Positions 34,585 through 59,973 of a stretch of 64,000 nt of DNA are shown in pieces; positions within the stretch are counted from its first letter, which is position 1; every line of letters starts with the position of its first letter. Source of the stretch: a virus. The position numbers were made by a program, and so were the translations under genes. The DNA lies in the IMG/VR virus record IMGVR_UViG_3300022903_000002, positions 32,001 through 96,000 of that record; one strand, written 5' to 3'. Below the pieces are notes generated by a model. It had not been told where the DNA came from. It saw only the letters and a list, made by a program, of their open reading frames with translations, and did no database searches.

Positions 34585-34827
34585 TCACGATGCGCTGTCC
34601 TCGGTGATCCCGCACGCCCCGCATGTCCACCCCGAAAGGGCGCAGTCCGACCCGCAACCATTCCAGTTACGGCACGTCGAACACTCTCGCCCGTTATGAA
34701 GCGCCCTCGCGGGCTGGCCGCACGTAAGGCATACGGCGACCTGGCCAGAGCCTCCACCCATCGCGCGGGGAAGGACGTTGCCGCTGTGGTCGGTCTCGTG
34801 GACGTCGCGGACCTCGAAGTTGCTCAC
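34585..34827 (-). CDS. Cys-rich small protein
   Basis: Several CxxC motifs; coupled to the recombinase stop. Confidence 0.55.
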   Translation of the reverse strand: MSNFEVRDVHETDHSGNVLPRAMGGGSGQVAVCLTCGQPARALHNGRECSTCRNWNGCGSDCALSGWTCGACGITEDSAS

Positions 34828-35837
34828 GTCTCGCTCGCTTCCTGGTGGAGAGGCTCAGCCTCGCGGTCAGCCAACGTCTTTCGTCTGCGGGCCGCCAGGA
34901 CGAGCCCAGGTCGCTTGTCGCGCCGGTTGCGCGCCCGGTCGTACCGACGAGTGGTCTTCGGATCCCGATGCCCCAGGGCGTCCTGTACGTCCACCAGCGG
35001 CACGCCTTCGTCCAGCGCGTGCGTGGCCATGGTGTGTCGCAGCGAGTGTGGGCCGAGCCGTTCCCACGACTTGATGCCCGCCGTGCGGGCGAGATGCCGG
35101 ATCAGCCTCCAGGCATACGCCTGATCGATGCGGAAGCCGGAGACGTTCAGGAACAGAGGCTCATCTTTTGCGGGCTTGCCGCGCTCCGCGAGGTAGGCAT
35201 CGAGCGCTTCGGCGGCAATCTCCTCGATATGGCGGTGCGTGATGCTGCCGCCCTTCATAGTCAGGGCGATGGTCCGCTCGCCCTCGTTCCAGCCGAGGTC
35301 TCCGATGTTGGCGGCTACCACTGAGCCGACGCGTAGGCCGGCGTAGAACAGGACGGCGATCAGGGCCGCCGAACGCTTGCAGTCAGCCTCTGCGGCGTCG
35401 AGCAGCTGGTTGAGTTCGGCTTCGCTCAGCCCGACGGCGTTAGAGACGCTCTGGTCGATCTTGGGCCGCTTCACGGCCTTGGCGGGGTTGGTCTCGATGA
35501 CCTCTTCGTCGGTGAGGTACTGGTACCACGAGGACACGACGGCCAGGCGGCGGGAGATCGAAGCGGGGGAGTAGCTCACCTGCTGGAGTGCGTGCTTGTA
35601 GGCATCCACGTGAGCGCGGCGGACCTTGAGCGGGTCGAGGTCGCGCTCGGCGCACCAGGGGAGCCAGCCGGGAACCTTCATACGTGGGGCGGTGCTCATG
35701 AGGTCGCGAGCGTAAGCGACCTTGGTGTGTTCGCTGCCCTGGGCGAGTAGCCATGCAGCGACCATCTGCCGGATCGTGTCTTCAGCATCGTTTGACCGCG
35801 CGGGAAGAGGCGCGACAGTCGGTTCGAGGGCGGTCAT
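34824..35837 (-). CDS. XerC/D-like tyrosine recombinase
   Basis: SAM-like N-domain, GLR, KGG, HSLRH, LGH...TTRRY; no arm-binding domain. Confidence 0.9.
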   Translation of the reverse strand: MTALEPTVAPLPARSNDAEDTIRQMVAAWLLAQGSEHTKVAYARDLMSTAPRMKVPGWLPWCAERDLDPLKVRRAHVDAYKHALQQVSYSPASISRRLAVVSSWYQYLTDEEVIETNPAKAVKRPKIDQSVSNAVGLSEAELNQLLDAAEADCKRSAALIAVLFYAGLRVGSVVAANIGDLGWNEGERTIALTMKGGSITHRHIEEIAAEALDAYLAERGKPAKDEPLFLNVSGFRIDQAYAWRLIRHLARTAGIKSWERLGPHSLRHTMATHALDEGVPLVDVQDALGHRDPKTTRRYDRARNRRDKRPGLVLAARRRKTLADREAEPLHQEASET

Positions 35838-36736
35838 CTCTTCCACAAGTGGACCTTCTCTCCGCCGAGCATCGGCGCTCCCTCGGGGCCTTTAACATGG
35901 GGGGCGATCCAAACCGGGCGATGAACCTCACGCTTTGGGTGCCATTGCTGTCGCCAGTGTCCCCTGACGATCCACTGGTGGTGGTATTCCCGTCCTGATG
36001 CTTCGGATTCGTCCGAGGATGTCTGGGAGCGTCGCAAGGTGATGATCCTCACGGGGGCCGCTTCAGGATCGATCCGAGCTATACGTTTGCGGTCAGCGCG
36101 AGAGTAGGTCGCGTCTTCAATGTTCAGGATCGACTGCTGCATCAGTGTCCAGAATGTCTTCGTGACCGCGCCGTGTTTCTGGGCGCTATCGACATCGGCT
36201 GGCTTCCCGGGTTCTTGTCCGAACGACCACCAGCCGGGGACATGTGTCTCGTGAACTAGCGGGAGCATCCGCCTTGTCGCTTCGACCAGTTTGGGATACG
36301 CGGAGATCTGGTCCGTGTAGTCCCGGCGCTCTGTCAGCCAGATCGTTTGAACACCCTGGCCTTCGAGTACAGCCCAAGCGAACCCGTGGACTCTCTCCGT
36401 AATGGGTTCGAACACGTTTGGAGCTACTTCGACTTCGTAGTCTCGATTCCAAAGAGGTTCGGGAGTGTAGAGCAGGCCGACCATCGAGGGAAGATCCTCT
36501 TGTTGCAGAGAGTAGTCAGGGATGGTTTTTGCAGCCTCGACCGCCAGTTGGGCCATCTGCGGAGCGACGTAGTAGAGGTCAACGCTCACGGAGGCGAGAA
36601 GATCAGCAAACTTGATCCGCATTGCTGTAGGCGTCTCAGATGGGTAGACGTTGTCGAAGAACGCCTCGGCGCGACCGTCTCGGTACCAGGCCAAGAGGTC
36701 ATGCTTGATCATCGGTAGATCGACTGCGCGGATCAT
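35834..36736 (-). CDS. conserved hypothetical protein
   Basis: HQWIVRGHWRQQW...WIAPHVKGP motif; more AT-rich codons. Confidence 0.7.
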   Translation of the reverse strand: MIRAVDLPMIKHDLLAWYRDGRAEAFFDNVYPSETPTAMRIKFADLLASVSVDLYYVAPQMAQLAVEAAKTIPDYSLQQEDLPSMVGLLYTPEPLWNRDYEVEVAPNVFEPITERVHGFAWAVLEGQGVQTIWLTERRDYTDQISAYPKLVEATRRMLPLVHETHVPGWWSFGQEPGKPADVDSAQKHGAVTKTFWTLMQQSILNIEDATYSRADRKRIARIDPEAAPVRIITLRRSQTSSDESEASGREYHHQWIVRGHWRQQWHPKREVHRPVWIAPHVKGPEGAPMLGGEKVHLWKR

Positions 36737-44420: not shown

Positions 44421-46364
44421 TTAGGCGGCGACTGACGCCAGCCGCTGTTTGCCCCGTTCGGTGATGCGATACAGTCCGCGACCGGTCTTCTCGATCTCGC
44501 CCGAGGCGACCAGGTCGGTGAGAGCCTTGGTGATAGTGCGGAGCGCCGGCGGCGGGGACATGTGGGTCTGGATGAACCCGACCATCTCCCCTCGGTTCAC
44601 TTCCTGGCCGTCCCGCTCCGCCAGATAACTCAAGACGGCGTCTTCGCCGATGCGGGACTGGTCGGAGTCGTCCTGTGTGTCCGCCTTCGATGACTGGCTT
44701 TGTGGGGTGTGGGCGCTGGCTCCGTCGCCGCCGGCGACAGGACCGACGAACGGCTCGAGTTGCGCCGGCTCCCCGCTCGTTGCCCAACGTCGCGGCTTGA
44801 TGATCAGGAACGTTCGCATCGTCGCGGGACGGTCAGCGCCGGGCCCGAACACGTAACCGAGACCTGAAGTCGTGTCTCCGTTCGGCCATTCCTTGGGCAG
44901 CGTGCACGGGTCGACGGGCATCGACCCGTTGAACGCGACCTGGCCCGAGAGGCGGTTCGCGGTGCGGAACACGATGACGTTCCCGGCGGCGACTGCGTCA
45001 CGGATCGCCATGGAGTTGCCCAGGCTGTTCAACAGCGGCACTTGGGTGATTAGCCGGAATTTGATCCCGCACTTGCGGGACATCGCGATCATTTCCTCAA
45101 CGAGCGCACAGCAGACAGGGTCACCGAGGACGGTCTGCGCCTCGTCGACTGTGACGCTGATCATTGGCAGGCCGTGACGCGGGTCGCCGGGGGTGAACTC
45201 CTCGATGCCCTCGATCTCTTCGCCGTCCTCATCGACCCACCGGATCGTGGACATGAGTTCGTTGCGGGCGTACATACGGTCGCGGAGTTCACGGAGCCGG
45301 CCGCGGATCGCGTCGAGGCCACCAGCGAACTGAGCGACAGCGTTCTTCCACCCAGACTCGGAGTAGGACTGCCCGCGTTGCGGGTCCAGAAGGATCGAAG
45401 CGATCACACCAGAGTGGCGTTCCTCGGCGAGGAGGAGTTTGACGAGGACAGACTTCCCGGCGTCGGTGGATCCGGCGATGAGGTCGTGGACCGGCCCGGA
45501 CCGTGGCCGGTAGTGCCGGTACGAGACAGGATTCCCGTCGGTGTACACGCCGATACGGGAGACACCAGTGGCGGTTTTGAGAGTCGGCCCAGGCCAGTGG
45601 TGAACCTCCTGGAGCGGGTTCTCGGCCTGCACGAGCACCCGGAAGTGCCGAAGGGACCCGTCGGGGGCCGGTTCGATACTGATCGAGCCGGTCTTCAGGT
45701 GGAGTGCGCCACCGATGTCCTCGGTCGCCATAATCGCGCGCTTGTAGGTGCCTTTGGTGACTTCGCCCAGTCCGGCCCAGCCGCCGCGGATCTTCTCTAC
45801 TTCGAGGATCCGCGAGTGCTCGAGCGGGCCGCCTGAGCAGGAGACATGGAGGCGCCACGACTCGACCAGCTCCGGGTCCTCCGCGACGGGCGCGACCTCG
45901 GGCGCCTGGTGGTTGCGGATGCGGTAGCGCCACCACCACGGCAACGCGAACGCCCCACCGACGATCGCGAGCCACGCGGGCATCGGCTTGCCGACACCGT
46001 GCGCTGCGGCTTCCATGAGCCACAGCGTCGCCGCGATGATTGAGGTGACCGCGTGCAACTGCCGCCAGATATTCACGGCCTTGGCGTAGAGGGCCCACCA
46101 TGTGCCGCCGGCGGTTACCGCGCCGGTTGCGAGGACCGCCCACCACGGGGCACTGAACACCTCCAAGGCGAACCCAGTGACGTAGGCGCCGCCCATGACC
46201 TCGACGGGGATGAGTTGGCGGCGGAACCGTCTCCCGACCTTGAACGTCCCGGCGAGGGCCCGGTGCTCCTTCTTCGGAGCGGACGCCGCAGCGGCAACCG
46301 CTGGCTGGGACACGTCAACGCGAACCGTCTGCGGGTCCCGCTGCTCAACTGCTACGGCGTCCAT
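44421..46364 (-). CDS. traB: FtsK/SpoIIIE-family conjugative DNA translocase (TraB/TraSA-like)
   Basis: N-terminal TM segments, Walker A IAGSTDAGKS, Walker B VTVDEAQ, SRKCGI..LITQ, C-terminal wHTH (KALTDLVASGEIEKTGRGLY). Confidence 0.85.
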   Translation of the reverse strand: MDAVAVEQRDPQTVRVDVSQPAVAAAASAPKKEHRALAGTFKVGRRFRRQLIPVEVMGGAYVTGFALEVFSAPWWAVLATGAVTAGGTWWALYAKAVNIWRQLHAVTSIIAATLWLMEAAAHGVGKPMPAWLAIVGGAFALPWWWRYRIRNHQAPEVAPVAEDPELVESWRLHVSCSGGPLEHSRILEVEKIRGGWAGLGEVTKGTYKRAIMATEDIGGALHLKTGSISIEPAPDGSLRHFRVLVQAENPLQEVHHWPGPTLKTATGVSRIGVYTDGNPVSYRHYRPRSGPVHDLIAGSTDAGKSVLVKLLLAEERHSGVIASILLDPQRGQSYSESGWKNAVAQFAGGLDAIRGRLRELRDRMYARNELMSTIRWVDEDGEEIEGIEEFTPGDPRHGLPMISVTVDEAQTVLGDPVCCALVEEMIAMSRKCGIKFRLITQVPLLNSLGNSMAIRDAVAAGNVIVFRTANRLSGQVAFNGSMPVDPCTLPKEWPNGDTTSGLGYVFGPGADRPATMRTFLIIKPRRWATSGEPAQLEPFVGPVAGGDGASAHTPQSQSSKADTQDDSDQSRIGEDAVLSYLAERDGQEVNRGEMVGFIQTHMSPPPALRTITKALTDLVASGEIEKTGRGLYRITERGKQRLASVAA

Positions 46365-57737: not shown

Positions 57738-57840
57738 TATCGGGGGTTCAGGTCGCCCGCAACTAGACGACTTTCCGCAGGTCACTTCACATGCGACCGT
57801 GCGCGGGTACCGTCCCCATTGACACCCCTGGGAGGGCTCG

Positions 57841-57972
57841 ATGGGCGCACACGGCGGCGGTGGCAACTCGGACGGCAAAGGCGGGGACGGGAACAACCCG
57901 CGAGGTGGCTCCCACAGCGGCGGTTCCGGATCCGGCGGTAACGCCGGCGACGGCAACAAGCCCGGCAAGTGA
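57841..57972 (+). CDS. RiPP precursor peptide (imiditide/pamtide type), 43 aa
   Basis: GGGAGG RBS; MGAHGGGGNSDGKGGDGNNPRGGSHSGGSGSGGNAGDGNKPGK*; stop overlaps the methyltransferase start; absent from the ORF track. Confidence 0.75.
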   Translation: MGAHGGGGNSDGKGGDGNNPRGGSHSGGSGSGGNAGDGNKPGK

Positions 57973-59141
57973 CACCTGGCGACCTCGCCGCACGCATCGA
58001 CCGCCTGTGCGACCAGCTCGTCTCCAGCGGGGATCTACGAAGCCCTGTCTGGCGGGCTGCATTCCACGCGGTCCCGCGGCACCTGTTCGTCCCTGACAGG
58101 GCCTGGGCTTCCCCGAACGGCCCCGAAGCCGGCTACTCGATCGACCGTTCCTCCGACATGGACGGCTGGCTCGACGCCGTGTACTCCGACGCCGCGATCA
58201 TCACCCAACGCAACGACGGGCGAGCGGACGTCAACGGCGGTGGTGAACCGTCGAGTTCATGCTCCGCGCCGGCGACCGTCGCAGAGTTCCTCGAGTATCT
58301 GACCCCGGACGACTTCAACCGGGTCCTCGAGATCGGCACAGGAACCGGCTGGACTGCGGCGCTACTGTCGCACCGGGTCCGGGCCTGCAACGTCACATCC
58401 ATCGATATCGATCCGGTCGTGTCCGAGACGGCAGCGAAGAACCTCGCGGAGACGGACTACCATCCGCGGCTGATCGTGGGCGACGGGACGGCCGGCCACG
58501 GGTCCGGGGCGCCGTTCGACCGGGTTCATGTGGCGGTGGGCGTCGCGGACATCCCTCATGCGTGGGTCGACCAGACACGCCCGGGTGGGGTGATCGTGTT
58601 GCCGTTCATGCCCGGGTACGGCTTCGGGTGGCTCGCCCGCCTGCACGTCCTCGGTGACGGCACGGCGGTGGGCCGGTTCGTTGGGTCTGCCGGGTACATG
58701 ATGCTCCGCGGGCAGCGTCCGGCATGCCGGGCGATCCCAGATCTGCCGAAGGCCGGGCTGGTCGAGTCGACTACGCGACTGGATCCGCGGCGGGTCCACA
58801 CGGACACGAACGTCGACCTGTTCATCGCTGCGTCGATGCCGGGCGTTCAGGAGCGCCTCTTCTACGGCGACGGTGATGCGGCGGACGAGTGCACGCTGTG
58901 GCTCATCGAGTCGGGTGACACGGGGTCGTGGGCGTCCGTGGACTACGTCCCGGGCCGGGCCGAGTTCGTCGTGGAGCAGTACGGTGCGCGCCGTCTGTGG
59001 GACGAGGTTGAGGGGACGTACATGCGGTGGCTTGGCTGGGGGCGGCCGGGCATCGAACGGCTCGGGCTAACGGTCTCACCGGACGGCCAGTACGTGTGGT
59101 TGGACTCCCCGGACCGCGTGTTGACGCCGGGTGGGGGATGA
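57969..59141 (+). CDS. PIMT-like peptide aspartyl O-methyltransferase (RiPP maturase)
   Basis: VPRHLF, PSSSCSAP, VLEIGTGTGW, PFDRV, extra C-domain with VEQYGARRLWDEVE...GLTV...WLDSP. Confidence 0.88.
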   Translation: MTPGDLAARIDRLCDQLVSSGDLRSPVWRAAFHAVPRHLFVPDRAWASPNGPEAGYSIDRSSDMDGWLDAVYSDAAIITQRNDGRADVNGGGEPSSSCSAPATVAEFLEYLTPDDFNRVLEIGTGTGWTAALLSHRVRACNVTSIDIDPVVSETAAKNLAETDYHPRLIVGDGTAGHGSGAPFDRVHVAVGVADIPHAWVDQTRPGGVIVLPFMPGYGFGWLARLHVLGDGTAVGRFVGSAGYMMLRGQRPACRAIPDLPKAGLVESTTRLDPRRVHTDTNVDLFIAASMPGVQERLFYGDGDAADECTLWLIESGDTGSWASVDYVPGRAEFVVEQYGARRLWDEVEGTYMRWLGWGRPGIERLGLTVSPDGQYVWLDSPDRVLTPGGG

Positions 59142-59322
59142 CCTCGACGAGGCTCGTCACGTCAACGAGGGCGAGCGCCTGGTCCATTTCGCTGCGGCGG
59201 TAGTAGCCACGCCCGAGGAGGATGCGGTGGTGCCAGGACACCCTGATCCACTGCTGCGGGCCGTGGCCACGGTCGAGGACAACTATCTCAAGGCGTCGTC
59301 CGTCTGCGTCGACCATGACCAT
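58903..59322 (-). CDS. small hypothetical protein overlapping the methyltransferase 3' end
   Basis: MVMVDADGRRLEIVVLD...LVDVTSLVEV followed by a low-quality tail. Confidence 0.4.
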   Translation of the reverse strand: MVMVDADGRRLEIVVLDRGHGPQQWIRVSWHHRILLGRGYYRRSEMDQALALVDVTSLVEVIPHPASTRGPGSPTTRTGRPVRPLARAVRCPAAPSQATACTSPQPRPTDGAHRTAPRRTRPGPGRSPRTPTTPCHPTR

Positions 59323-59438
59323 GGCGGACAGAGTACCTACCTGGCAAAATGCGGTGTGGAGCTTAGCGCCCCCGCTTACTACTGGCCGGCGGGGGACTTC
59401 CAGGCGAACTTGTTGTTCCGGTTCAGGTCCCGCATCGG

Positions 59439-59765
59439 TCAGTCCTCCAGCTTGATCGCTCGCAGGGCCGCGTTGACCCGCTGCTCCCGTGCCGTGTTCG
59501 CGTGACTCGGGCGCGGCTTGCAGCAGGCAAGCTGCACACGCCATCGATCCTTGCCGAGATGGTCAGGAACGAGCTTCCACGACGCGGTTGTCGGTTCATC
59601 CACGATCAGTTCGAAGCCGCGCCACTGCAGTTCGGCGTTCCGGCCTACCTGCTCCAGCACGATCAGTTCCAGTGTCCGGCCGGCAAGGCGAAGGAACTCT
59701 GCGACGAGGATGCGATGAACGGCTGCGGCATAGCGCTGGGCGGCCTGCTCTGTGATCGTCGCCAT
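59439..59765 (-). CDS. hypothetical protein
   Basis: GAGG RBS; operon context. Confidence 0.55.
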   Translation of the reverse strand: MATITEQAAQRYAAAVHRILVAEFLRLAGRTLELIVLEQVGRNAELQWRGFELIVDEPTTASWKLVPDHLGKDRWRVQLACCKPRPSHANTAREQRVNAALRAIKLED

Positions 59766-59769
59766 CGGG

Positions 59770-59973
59770 TCAGTCCTCAACTTCCTGCCAGTCGGACACG
59801 ACCGTGTGTGTCGTGGCGTCGTAACTCAGGACGACGAGGACGCCCTCGCCTCGCTCGTTCTCCACGATCGCGTCCTCGGCATCCTCGCGCGAACCGAAGG
59901 GGAAGACGACACCTGTCTTCCAGCGGGCGCCGTACTGCTGCTTAATCTCGGGCTGCTTCTTGCGTGTGGCCAT
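59770..59973 (-). CDS. hypothetical protein
   Basis: Operon context. Confidence 0.6.
   Translation of the reverse strand: MATRKKQPEIKQQYGARWKTGVVFPFGSREDAEDAIVENERGEGVLVVLSYDATTHTVVSDWQEVED

Follow-up and report, generated by a model that had tools for sequence, protein, structure and literature searches.

Imiditides, also called type I pamtides, were established as a class in 2023 through genome mining combined with in vitro chemistry. In NmaA–NmaM of Nonomuraea maritima and SpaA–SpaM of Streptomyces sparsogenes, a linear precursor of about 45 residues is followed by a 300–450-residue homologue of protein-L-isoaspartate O-methyltransferase (PIMT); NmaM and SpaM each methylate a single Asp in the neighbouring linear peptide, and the ester proceeds to an aspartimide and then to Asp or isoAsp (10.1101/2023.04.07.536058; PMC10787088). 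The biological function of these peptides is openly stated as unknown (PMC13001092). The words phage, prophage and virus are absent from 10.1101/2023.04.07.536058, from PMC10787088 with supplementary material and from PMC13001092, and a literature search for phage-borne imiditide versions returned nothing specific. Modified peptides carried by phages are in themselves known, sublancin on the Bacillus subtilis prophage SPbeta being one example (10.1101/2020.10.01.322628). Here we describe a two-gene pair of the imiditide type in 64,000 nucleotides of viral DNA, referred to below as the window, which comprises bases 32001–96000 of the single 105,082-bp contig (65.5% GC) of IMG/VR record IMGVR_UViG_3300022903_000002. 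The pair adds a phage-borne member to a known peptide class, in an under-reported context.

The precursor peptide gene (57841–57972, plus strand, window coordinates) is an open reading frame (ORF) read from the sequence, with its ATG at 57841 and its TGA at 57970–57972. It encodes the 43-residue Gly-rich peptide MGAHGGGGNSDGKGGDGNNPRGGSHSGGSGSGGNAGDGNKPGK, composed of 19 Gly (44%), three Asp (7%), three Lys (7%) and two Pro (4.7%), with Asp-Gly at residues 11–12, 16–17 and 37–38. A Shine–Dalgarno sequence, GGGAGGG (57830–57836, plus strand), lies 4 nucleotides 5′ of the ATG, and the peptide TGA overlaps the GTG start codon of the methyltransferase gene (57969) in the tetranucleotide GTGA (57969–57972). 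The downstream gene (57969–59141, plus strand) encodes a PIMT-homologous O-methyltransferase of the PAMT type with 390 residues. The Pfam PCMT domain matches residues 58–217 only (6e-29), leaving extensions of about 57 residues at the N-terminus and about 170 residues at the C-terminus. The original prediction had described a small ORF with a strong ribosome-binding site and three Asp-Gly motifs whose stop codon overlaps the start of a PIMT homologue carrying an extra C-terminal domain, and the sequence bears out all of these features.

Three motifs mark the enzyme, and their conservation was judged on an alignment of 22 homologues. The S-adenosylmethionine (SAM)-binding GxGxG motif is G123-T-G-T-G127 (58335–58349, plus strand), in which G123, T124, G125 and G127 are invariant. 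An SSCSAP loop at residues 96–101 (58254–58271, plus strand), which we take to be the equivalent of the PIMT substrate-binding loop, has S97, S99 and P101 invariant. The WxxxGxP motif of the C-terminal substrate-recognition domain is W354-L-G-W-G358-R-P360 (59028–59048, plus strand), with W354, G358 and P360 invariant; this motif was defined in 10.1101/2023.04.07.536058. The protein matches phrog_13505 at 1.1e-120, and its closest homologues are Actinoallomurus proteins with 59–70% identity. Membership of a defence system was considered and rejected, the PADLOC match being confined to the SAM-binding core (mad2, E 9.5e-15, residues 101–211).

The published genome-mining criteria for imiditides describe an enzyme of 300–450 residues with GxGxG and a C-terminal extension of 110–180 residues bearing WxxxGxP, together with a 30–75-residue ORF, located no more than 500 bp upstream on the same strand, that contains one or more Asp; the precursor is rich in Gly, Pro, Asp and Lys and has a conserved Asp near a conserved Gly or Pro, and no primary enzyme for peptides synthesized on ribosomes and modified after translation (RiPPs) lies nearby. 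The window enzyme has 390 residues, GTGTG at 123–127 and WLGWGRP at 354–360 within its C-terminal extension, and the 43-residue precursor has three Asp and overlaps the enzyme start. The precursor contains Gly, Asp and Lys in the proportions given above and has an invariant D37-G38; it is of a Gly-rich, Pro-poor subtype that is common to the window and Actinoallomurus. No Pfam or PHROG match to ATP-grasp, lanthipeptide or lasso enzymes was found among the ORFs between 53.1 and 62.8 kb. Assignment of the pair to the imiditide/type I pamtide class, as originally proposed, is thus supported by sequence criteria covering length, motifs, precursor and neighbourhood. Imiditide enzymes also have a class-specific C-terminal motif of 41 residues; indirect support for the window enzyme on this point comes from the MG(K/R)H-type peptides that precede its closest homologues.

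The pair also resembles NmaA–NmaM and SpaA–SpaM in its overall layout, with a short linear precursor ahead of a PIMT homologue that has GxGxG and, at its C-terminus, a WxxxGxP domain, in a conserved Asp adjoining a conserved Gly, in basic, His-containing peptide termini, in the lack of another RiPP enzyme nearby and in a taxonomic home among the Streptosporangiales and Streptomyces. It differs in being on a phage and in having a peptide that is much richer in Gly and poorer in Pro than the class average, and its likely modification site is a C-terminal Asp-Gly whereas that of NmaA is Asp-His. The chemistry of NmaM and SpaM is known from published biochemistry, while the window pair is known from its genes and a structural model. 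Graspimiditide methyltransferases such as ThfM of fuscimiditide offer a second comparison. Their family model TIGR04188 is the best NCBIfam match of the window enzyme (E 1.2e-86) and aligns over the full length including the C-terminal domain (enzyme residues 13–374, model positions 1–361 of 363), and the graspimiditide conversion of an Asp methyl ester to an aspartimide is the same chemistry that we propose, by analogy, for the window enzyme. However, the score of 291.4 bits is below the 380-bit cut-off, no ATP-grasp gene lies nearby and the substrate is linear rather than a ring-closed graspetide, which sets the window pair apart from the ATP-grasp maturase methyltransferases. The sublancin cluster is likewise a ribosomal modified-peptide cluster on a temperate phage, but it comes with a transporter and an immunity gene and plays a demonstrated competitive role, none of which accompanies the window pair, and its peptide class is unrelated.

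To place the small ORF among its relatives, we collected enzyme homologues by an alignment-based scan covering a single genome for each prokaryotic species, which returned 538 sequences of which 80 were kept, and added loci from IMG/VR scans. Peptide genes were sought as ORFs of 25–75 residues at or just before the enzyme start in which the start codon is followed within a few residues by K, R, Q or the like and then H. This pattern was present at 62 of 92 loci; 11 of the matches were false (UvrA-like C-termini or the enzyme's own N-terminus), leaving 51, and a few real peptides were missed by the pattern. Peptides of the form MG(K/R)H...N-x-x-D-G are found at the equivalent coupled position in genomes of Actinoallomurus, Actinomadura and Nonomuraea as well as on isolated Streptomyces phages, and the aligned loci with a homologue there number 17–19. 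The nearest, from Actinoallomurus and metagenome-assembled genomes (L012, L015 and L016), are 53–76% identical to the window peptide, and M1, H4, G23, G28, N34, D37 and G38 are invariant in a 17-row alignment. At the DNA level, the ATG, the GGAGG site and an RTGA stop/start overlap are all preserved across related loci, with a GGAGG-type site at the equivalent position in nearly all of them; indels in the peptide gene are multiples of three, and many Gly codons vary solely at the third base. The ratio of nonsynonymous to synonymous substitution rates (dN/dS, Nei–Gojobori) is 0.11–0.5, with synonymous sites near saturation (pS 0.45–0.70). Because the peptide is conserved in its coupled position and under purifying selection in relatives, the small ORF is, on sequence grounds, a real gene beyond chance.

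We then modeled the complex of peptide and enzyme, using alignments for both chains and including SAM, in three runs and with three controls. The complex prediction score was 0.78 (median of the three runs) and the best of the three controls scored 0.00; of 80 solved complexes, 58 attain the 0.78 mark, as do 2 of 110 mismatched pairs. The runs share at least 39% of contacts. The confident interface joins peptide residues 35–43 to enzyme residues 22, 48–55, 74–78, 94–106 and 239–244, and enzyme residues 97, 99–100, 102–103 and 106 contact peptide residues 38–40. A PDB sequence search with the enzyme returned canonical PIMTs only, over residues 90–250, and no solved PAMT; with no PAMT–peptide complex found among solved structures, it is less likely that the model reproduces a remembered one. 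The model supports, but does not show, binding of the peptide by the enzyme. Asp37 is probably the target residue, since Asp37-Gly38 (codons 57949–57954, plus strand) is invariant and falls within the N-x-x-D-G motif common also to the distant Streptomyces-phage peptides; the confident model interface covers this stretch.

Taken together, the locus is probably a self-contained two-gene imiditide/type I pamtide cassette on a temperate actinomycete phage, with its chemistry drawn from homology. The likely host, judged from the closest homologues only, would be Actinoallomurus or a near relative. The two genes would be translated as a coupled pair, after which the methyltransferase is predicted by the model to grip the C-terminal part of the 43-residue peptide via its extra domains. 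By analogy with NmaM and SpaM, SAM-dependent methylation would then fall on one Asp side chain, most likely that of Asp37. The backbone nitrogen of Gly38 would attack the methyl ester to form an aspartimide, a net change of −18 Da, and this may in turn hydrolyse to isoAsp or Asp.

Several observations weigh against this interpretation. The peptide is atypical for its class, with 44% Gly and 4.7% Pro compared with class means of about 17% for each (PMC10787088). Its own fold in the complex model is uncertain, with a predicted local distance difference test (pLDDT) value of 41–44; Asp37 is not among the listed lowest-error contacts, and Asp11 and Asp16 are alternative target sites. In Actinoallomurus oryzae and A. 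acaciae, whose enzymes are the closest to the window enzyme among named species, the peptide gene is reduced to 6–7 codons (MGQAGR and VGQHSGR, each followed by a stop; L013:9930–10000 and L014:7740–7810), while the methyltransferase is intact and the stop/start arrangement is retained. This collapse is either decay or a sign of another enzyme substrate, and since the enzyme stays intact despite it, the enzyme may have other substrates.

The carrier is a phage, as the original prediction held. The contig encodes a large terminase, a portal protein, an HK97-type capsid protein, a 1580-residue tape measure protein, a lysin with a peptidoglycan-binding domain, DnaB and two tyrosine recombinases (34824–35846, and 63909 onward), and the record is classed as a virus record. 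The last 40 codons of the contig correspond to phrog_1366 positions 2–39 (L094:8963–9082) and its first gene to positions 73–268 of the same family (L092:36–737). A phrog_1366 gene split by the contig ends with about 100 nucleotides missing implies that the record closes on itself without host flanks, so that its 105 kb represent a genome that is closed or circularly permuted, with a junction gap of about 100 nucleotides. This rules out that the pair sits on the chromosomal flank of a mis-bounded provirus. The split gene encodes a P-loop ATPase (GPSGCGKT), and its two parts are read in different frames and lack about 33 profile positions between them.

Related pairs occur on other phages. By tblastn against 50,697 phage records, full-length enzyme relatives with 43–45% identity were found in five isolated phages of Streptomyces venezuelae that belong to the genus Austintatiousvirus, namely PapayaSalad (gp25–gp24), Alderaan (HQ601_00034–00033), Austintatious, Ididsumtinwong and Bioscum. 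Megablast of the 55–62 kb region against phage records, among which the phage's own or near records may be lacking, gave no match. In PapayaSalad and Alderaan, a Gly/Ser/Asp-rich ORF of 47–48 residues ends 9 bp before the enzyme gene; the pair has the lysis cassette on one side and the regulator/integrase region on the other, and its transcription runs towards the lysis genes. These pairs share with the window an M-x-G-K-H start, a G-G-N-x-x-D-G motif and an enzyme of phrog_13505, here of 394 residues, and like the window pair they reside on a phage, adjoining a regulatory/integration region. They differ in the 9-bp gap that replaces the overlap and in genome size (34–38 kb versus 105 kb). The records label the genes only methyltransferase and hypothetical protein, the latter being the annotation of gp25, the peptide-equivalent ORF of PapayaSalad. 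A tRNA-Arg gene lies about 60 bp 5′ of the PapayaSalad peptide gene (L001:2675–2768). Inherited synteny between such pairs and a regulator was considered and rejected, because the regulators of about 400 residues that adjoin the pair in PapayaSalad, L010 and L005 do not form a single family and only two of them have an XRE helix-turn-helix in common. In Saccharomonospora phage PIS 136, an enzyme homologue is broken into PIS_118 and PIS_117 (L003:2929–3650); no Gly/Asp-rich peptide ORF precedes it, and HTH_31 and DUF397 genes lie upstream.

An IMG/VR scan with the single enzyme protein gave no relatives, but alignment-based scans did. Three contigs (G007, G008 and G010) carry the pair together with capsid and portal genes on the same record, and in G008 the pair lies 1.8 kb upstream of the terminase gene. 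The second IMG/VR scan gave about 42 contigs with a full-length enzyme, of which about 18 have an imiditide-like peptide, about 12 have the enzyme after an ATP-grasp gene and one has a tetracysteine peptide. In many IMG/VR proviruses the enzyme is less than 1 kb from the contig end and may represent host flank; these were not counted as evidence. The graspimiditide-like loci (L113, L114, L117–L120, L122, L126, L127, L131, L135 and L136) have a PAMT directly after an ATP-grasp C-terminus (...FDF...ECNP.GQW.WLE...); they are on contigs classed as viral, several at provirus edges that may be host flank. The tetracysteine peptide (C..C.G.G ... D ... C..C.G.G; L124:100–260) precedes a PAMT on a metagenomic viral contig, and the pair, which resembles cysimiditides or type II pamtides, is 255 bp away from the end of that contig.

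The maximum-likelihood tree covers 91 enzymes; it is unrooted and so leaves the direction of transfer unproven. In it an Actinoallomurus clade encloses the window enzyme, L004 groups with Actinomadura and L005 groups with Nonomuraea. The Streptomyces phage enzymes form a separate deep branch, their nearest relatives being Streptomyces copies: the Austintatious enzyme shares 85–88% identity with proteins from a few Streptomyces strains and about 65% with one encoded on the S. venezuelae chromosome. The label 'viral' changes six times on this tree, and its starred branches force at least five changes. No PF05065 capsid gene was found near the enzyme in the genomes of the five nearest Actinoallomurus copies, the closest being a weak match about 100 kb away. 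When the 134 ORFs of the contig were compared with 91 related loci by tblastn, only the methyltransferase was common and no flanking gene was; the bacterial copies are therefore not prophages of the window's phage type, given their unrelated flanks. The cassette has a GC content of 69.1%, against 65.5% for the contig, 64–65% for the flanks and a mean of 66.2 ± 1.5% for 44 long genes. Tree nesting, similarity to the host genus, the missing nearby capsid gene, the unrelated flanks and the cassette GC content together suggest that a small cassette was captured repeatedly from the host genus, and we infer that the window pair was acquired from a host genome.

A conserved word, GTACCGTCC (57807–57815, plus strand), lies upstream of the peptide gene and holds the −10-like TACCGT (TANNNT), making it a possible cassette promoter. 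The window and three bacterial loci from different genera (L015, L016 and L030) have the exact word 34–41 nucleotides 5′ of the peptide ATG, and versions with one or two mismatches occur at L004, L001/L008, L025, L059 and L078. Consensus scans of 55.5–60.5 kb for sigma-70 promoters and intrinsic terminators gave no hit. The word may act as a promoter or operator and move along with the cassette.

The pair sits in a small plus-strand island inside a long minus-strand block, about 4.8 kb from the second recombinase gene and 3–4 kb from Xis-like HTH_17 and HTH-Nudix genes, among ORFs (53.1–62.8 kb) that are almost all ORFans. A possible third ORF of 124 residues (59131–59505, plus strand) has a GTG that overlaps the methyltransferase stop, but it is uncertain and competes with a minus-strand ORF at 59439–59780; the GC content at third codon positions is 0.78 for the former and 0.75 for the latter, and the third ORF has no Pfam, PHROG or PADLOC match. 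No tRNA gene was found within the window. Elsewhere, contig positions 19.5–20.4 kb encode a homologue of Thg1-like tRNA-His guanylyltransferase (Pfam Thg1, 9e-26; L092:19524–20000) and a DUF5131 protein (3e-96), and a 647-residue protein (44421–46364) has a weak PHROG match to FtsK/SpoIIIE (E 7.7e-4), no Pfam FtsK_SpoIIIE match and weak C-terminal winged-helix matches.

It is very improbable that the enzyme is a generic repair PIMT preceded by a chance ORF, even though it has a Pfam PCMT domain and many homologues are named protein-L-isoaspartate O-methyltransferase in their source records. A canonical repair PIMT reaches the curated cut-off, has about 210 residues and lacks extra domains; the window enzyme falls below the cut-offs of both TIGR00080 (83 versus 159 bits) and NF001453 (103.8 versus 188 bits) and has extra domains with WxxxGxP, and the upstream ORF is conserved with a dN/dS below 0.5. 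This reading is already contradicted by the sequence evidence. A further alternative is that the main substrates are phage or host proteins with Asp or isoAsp, the small peptide being a minor substrate, a regulator or a decoy. The enzymes retained in L013 and L014 after peptide collapse speak for it, as do the thousands of PAMTs reported without an identifiable precursor and the one PAMT group reported beside a Pro/Gly-rich FHA protein (PMC10787088). We nevertheless consider it unlikely, because translational coupling is conserved across genera, the complex model scored far above its best control and the characterized relatives modify the adjacent peptide.

If the pair is, as we favour, a functional imiditide cassette, it remains to be asked what it does on a phage. 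The original prediction suggested a role in phage biology or phage-mediated spread of the class, which is plausible and fits at least five switches between virus and host. More specifically, it is possible, and we propose it tentatively, that imiditide cassettes are selected phage accessory genes, which unrelated actinophages have repeatedly taken up from the genera of their own hosts and mostly carry next to the immunity/integration region, and that the aspartimide or isoAsp peptide acts in the phage–host relationship; such a peptide might serve, for example, in lysogenic conversion, in interference with competitors or other phages, or in control of host development. It is likewise possible, though less likely than not, that the functional cluster is a passenger, that is, captured host DNA in the form of a small mobile module of two genes that brings its own promoter and gives no selected benefit to the phage. 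Nesting of the enzyme in the Actinoallomurus clade, the absence of a PF05065 capsid gene near the five nearest copies there, the lack of any flanking gene common to the window and 90 related loci, the raised GC content, the promoter-like word that accompanies the cassette and the ORFan neighbours all suit a passenger. Phage genomes are under packaging constraints and useless DNA is usually purged from them, which argues the other way, as do the intactness of all invariant enzyme residues, purifying selection on the peptide, recurrent capture with at least five label changes forced on the tree, and retention of the pair in the five isolated Austintatiousvirus phages.

Complete phages hold intact, conserved pairs, and the enzyme of each phage is closest to those of its own host genus. 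The finding adds a very small cluster type to the short list of phage-borne modified-peptide clusters, one that standard mining tools and phage annotators label only as 'methyltransferase' and 'hypothetical protein' or whose peptide they miss. The pair is present in tractable laboratory phages of Streptomyces venezuelae, Alderaan and PapayaSalad, which makes the question of function an ordinary knockout experiment. If the cassettes are indeed selected accessory genes, phages would be the first handle on the biology of the imiditide class.

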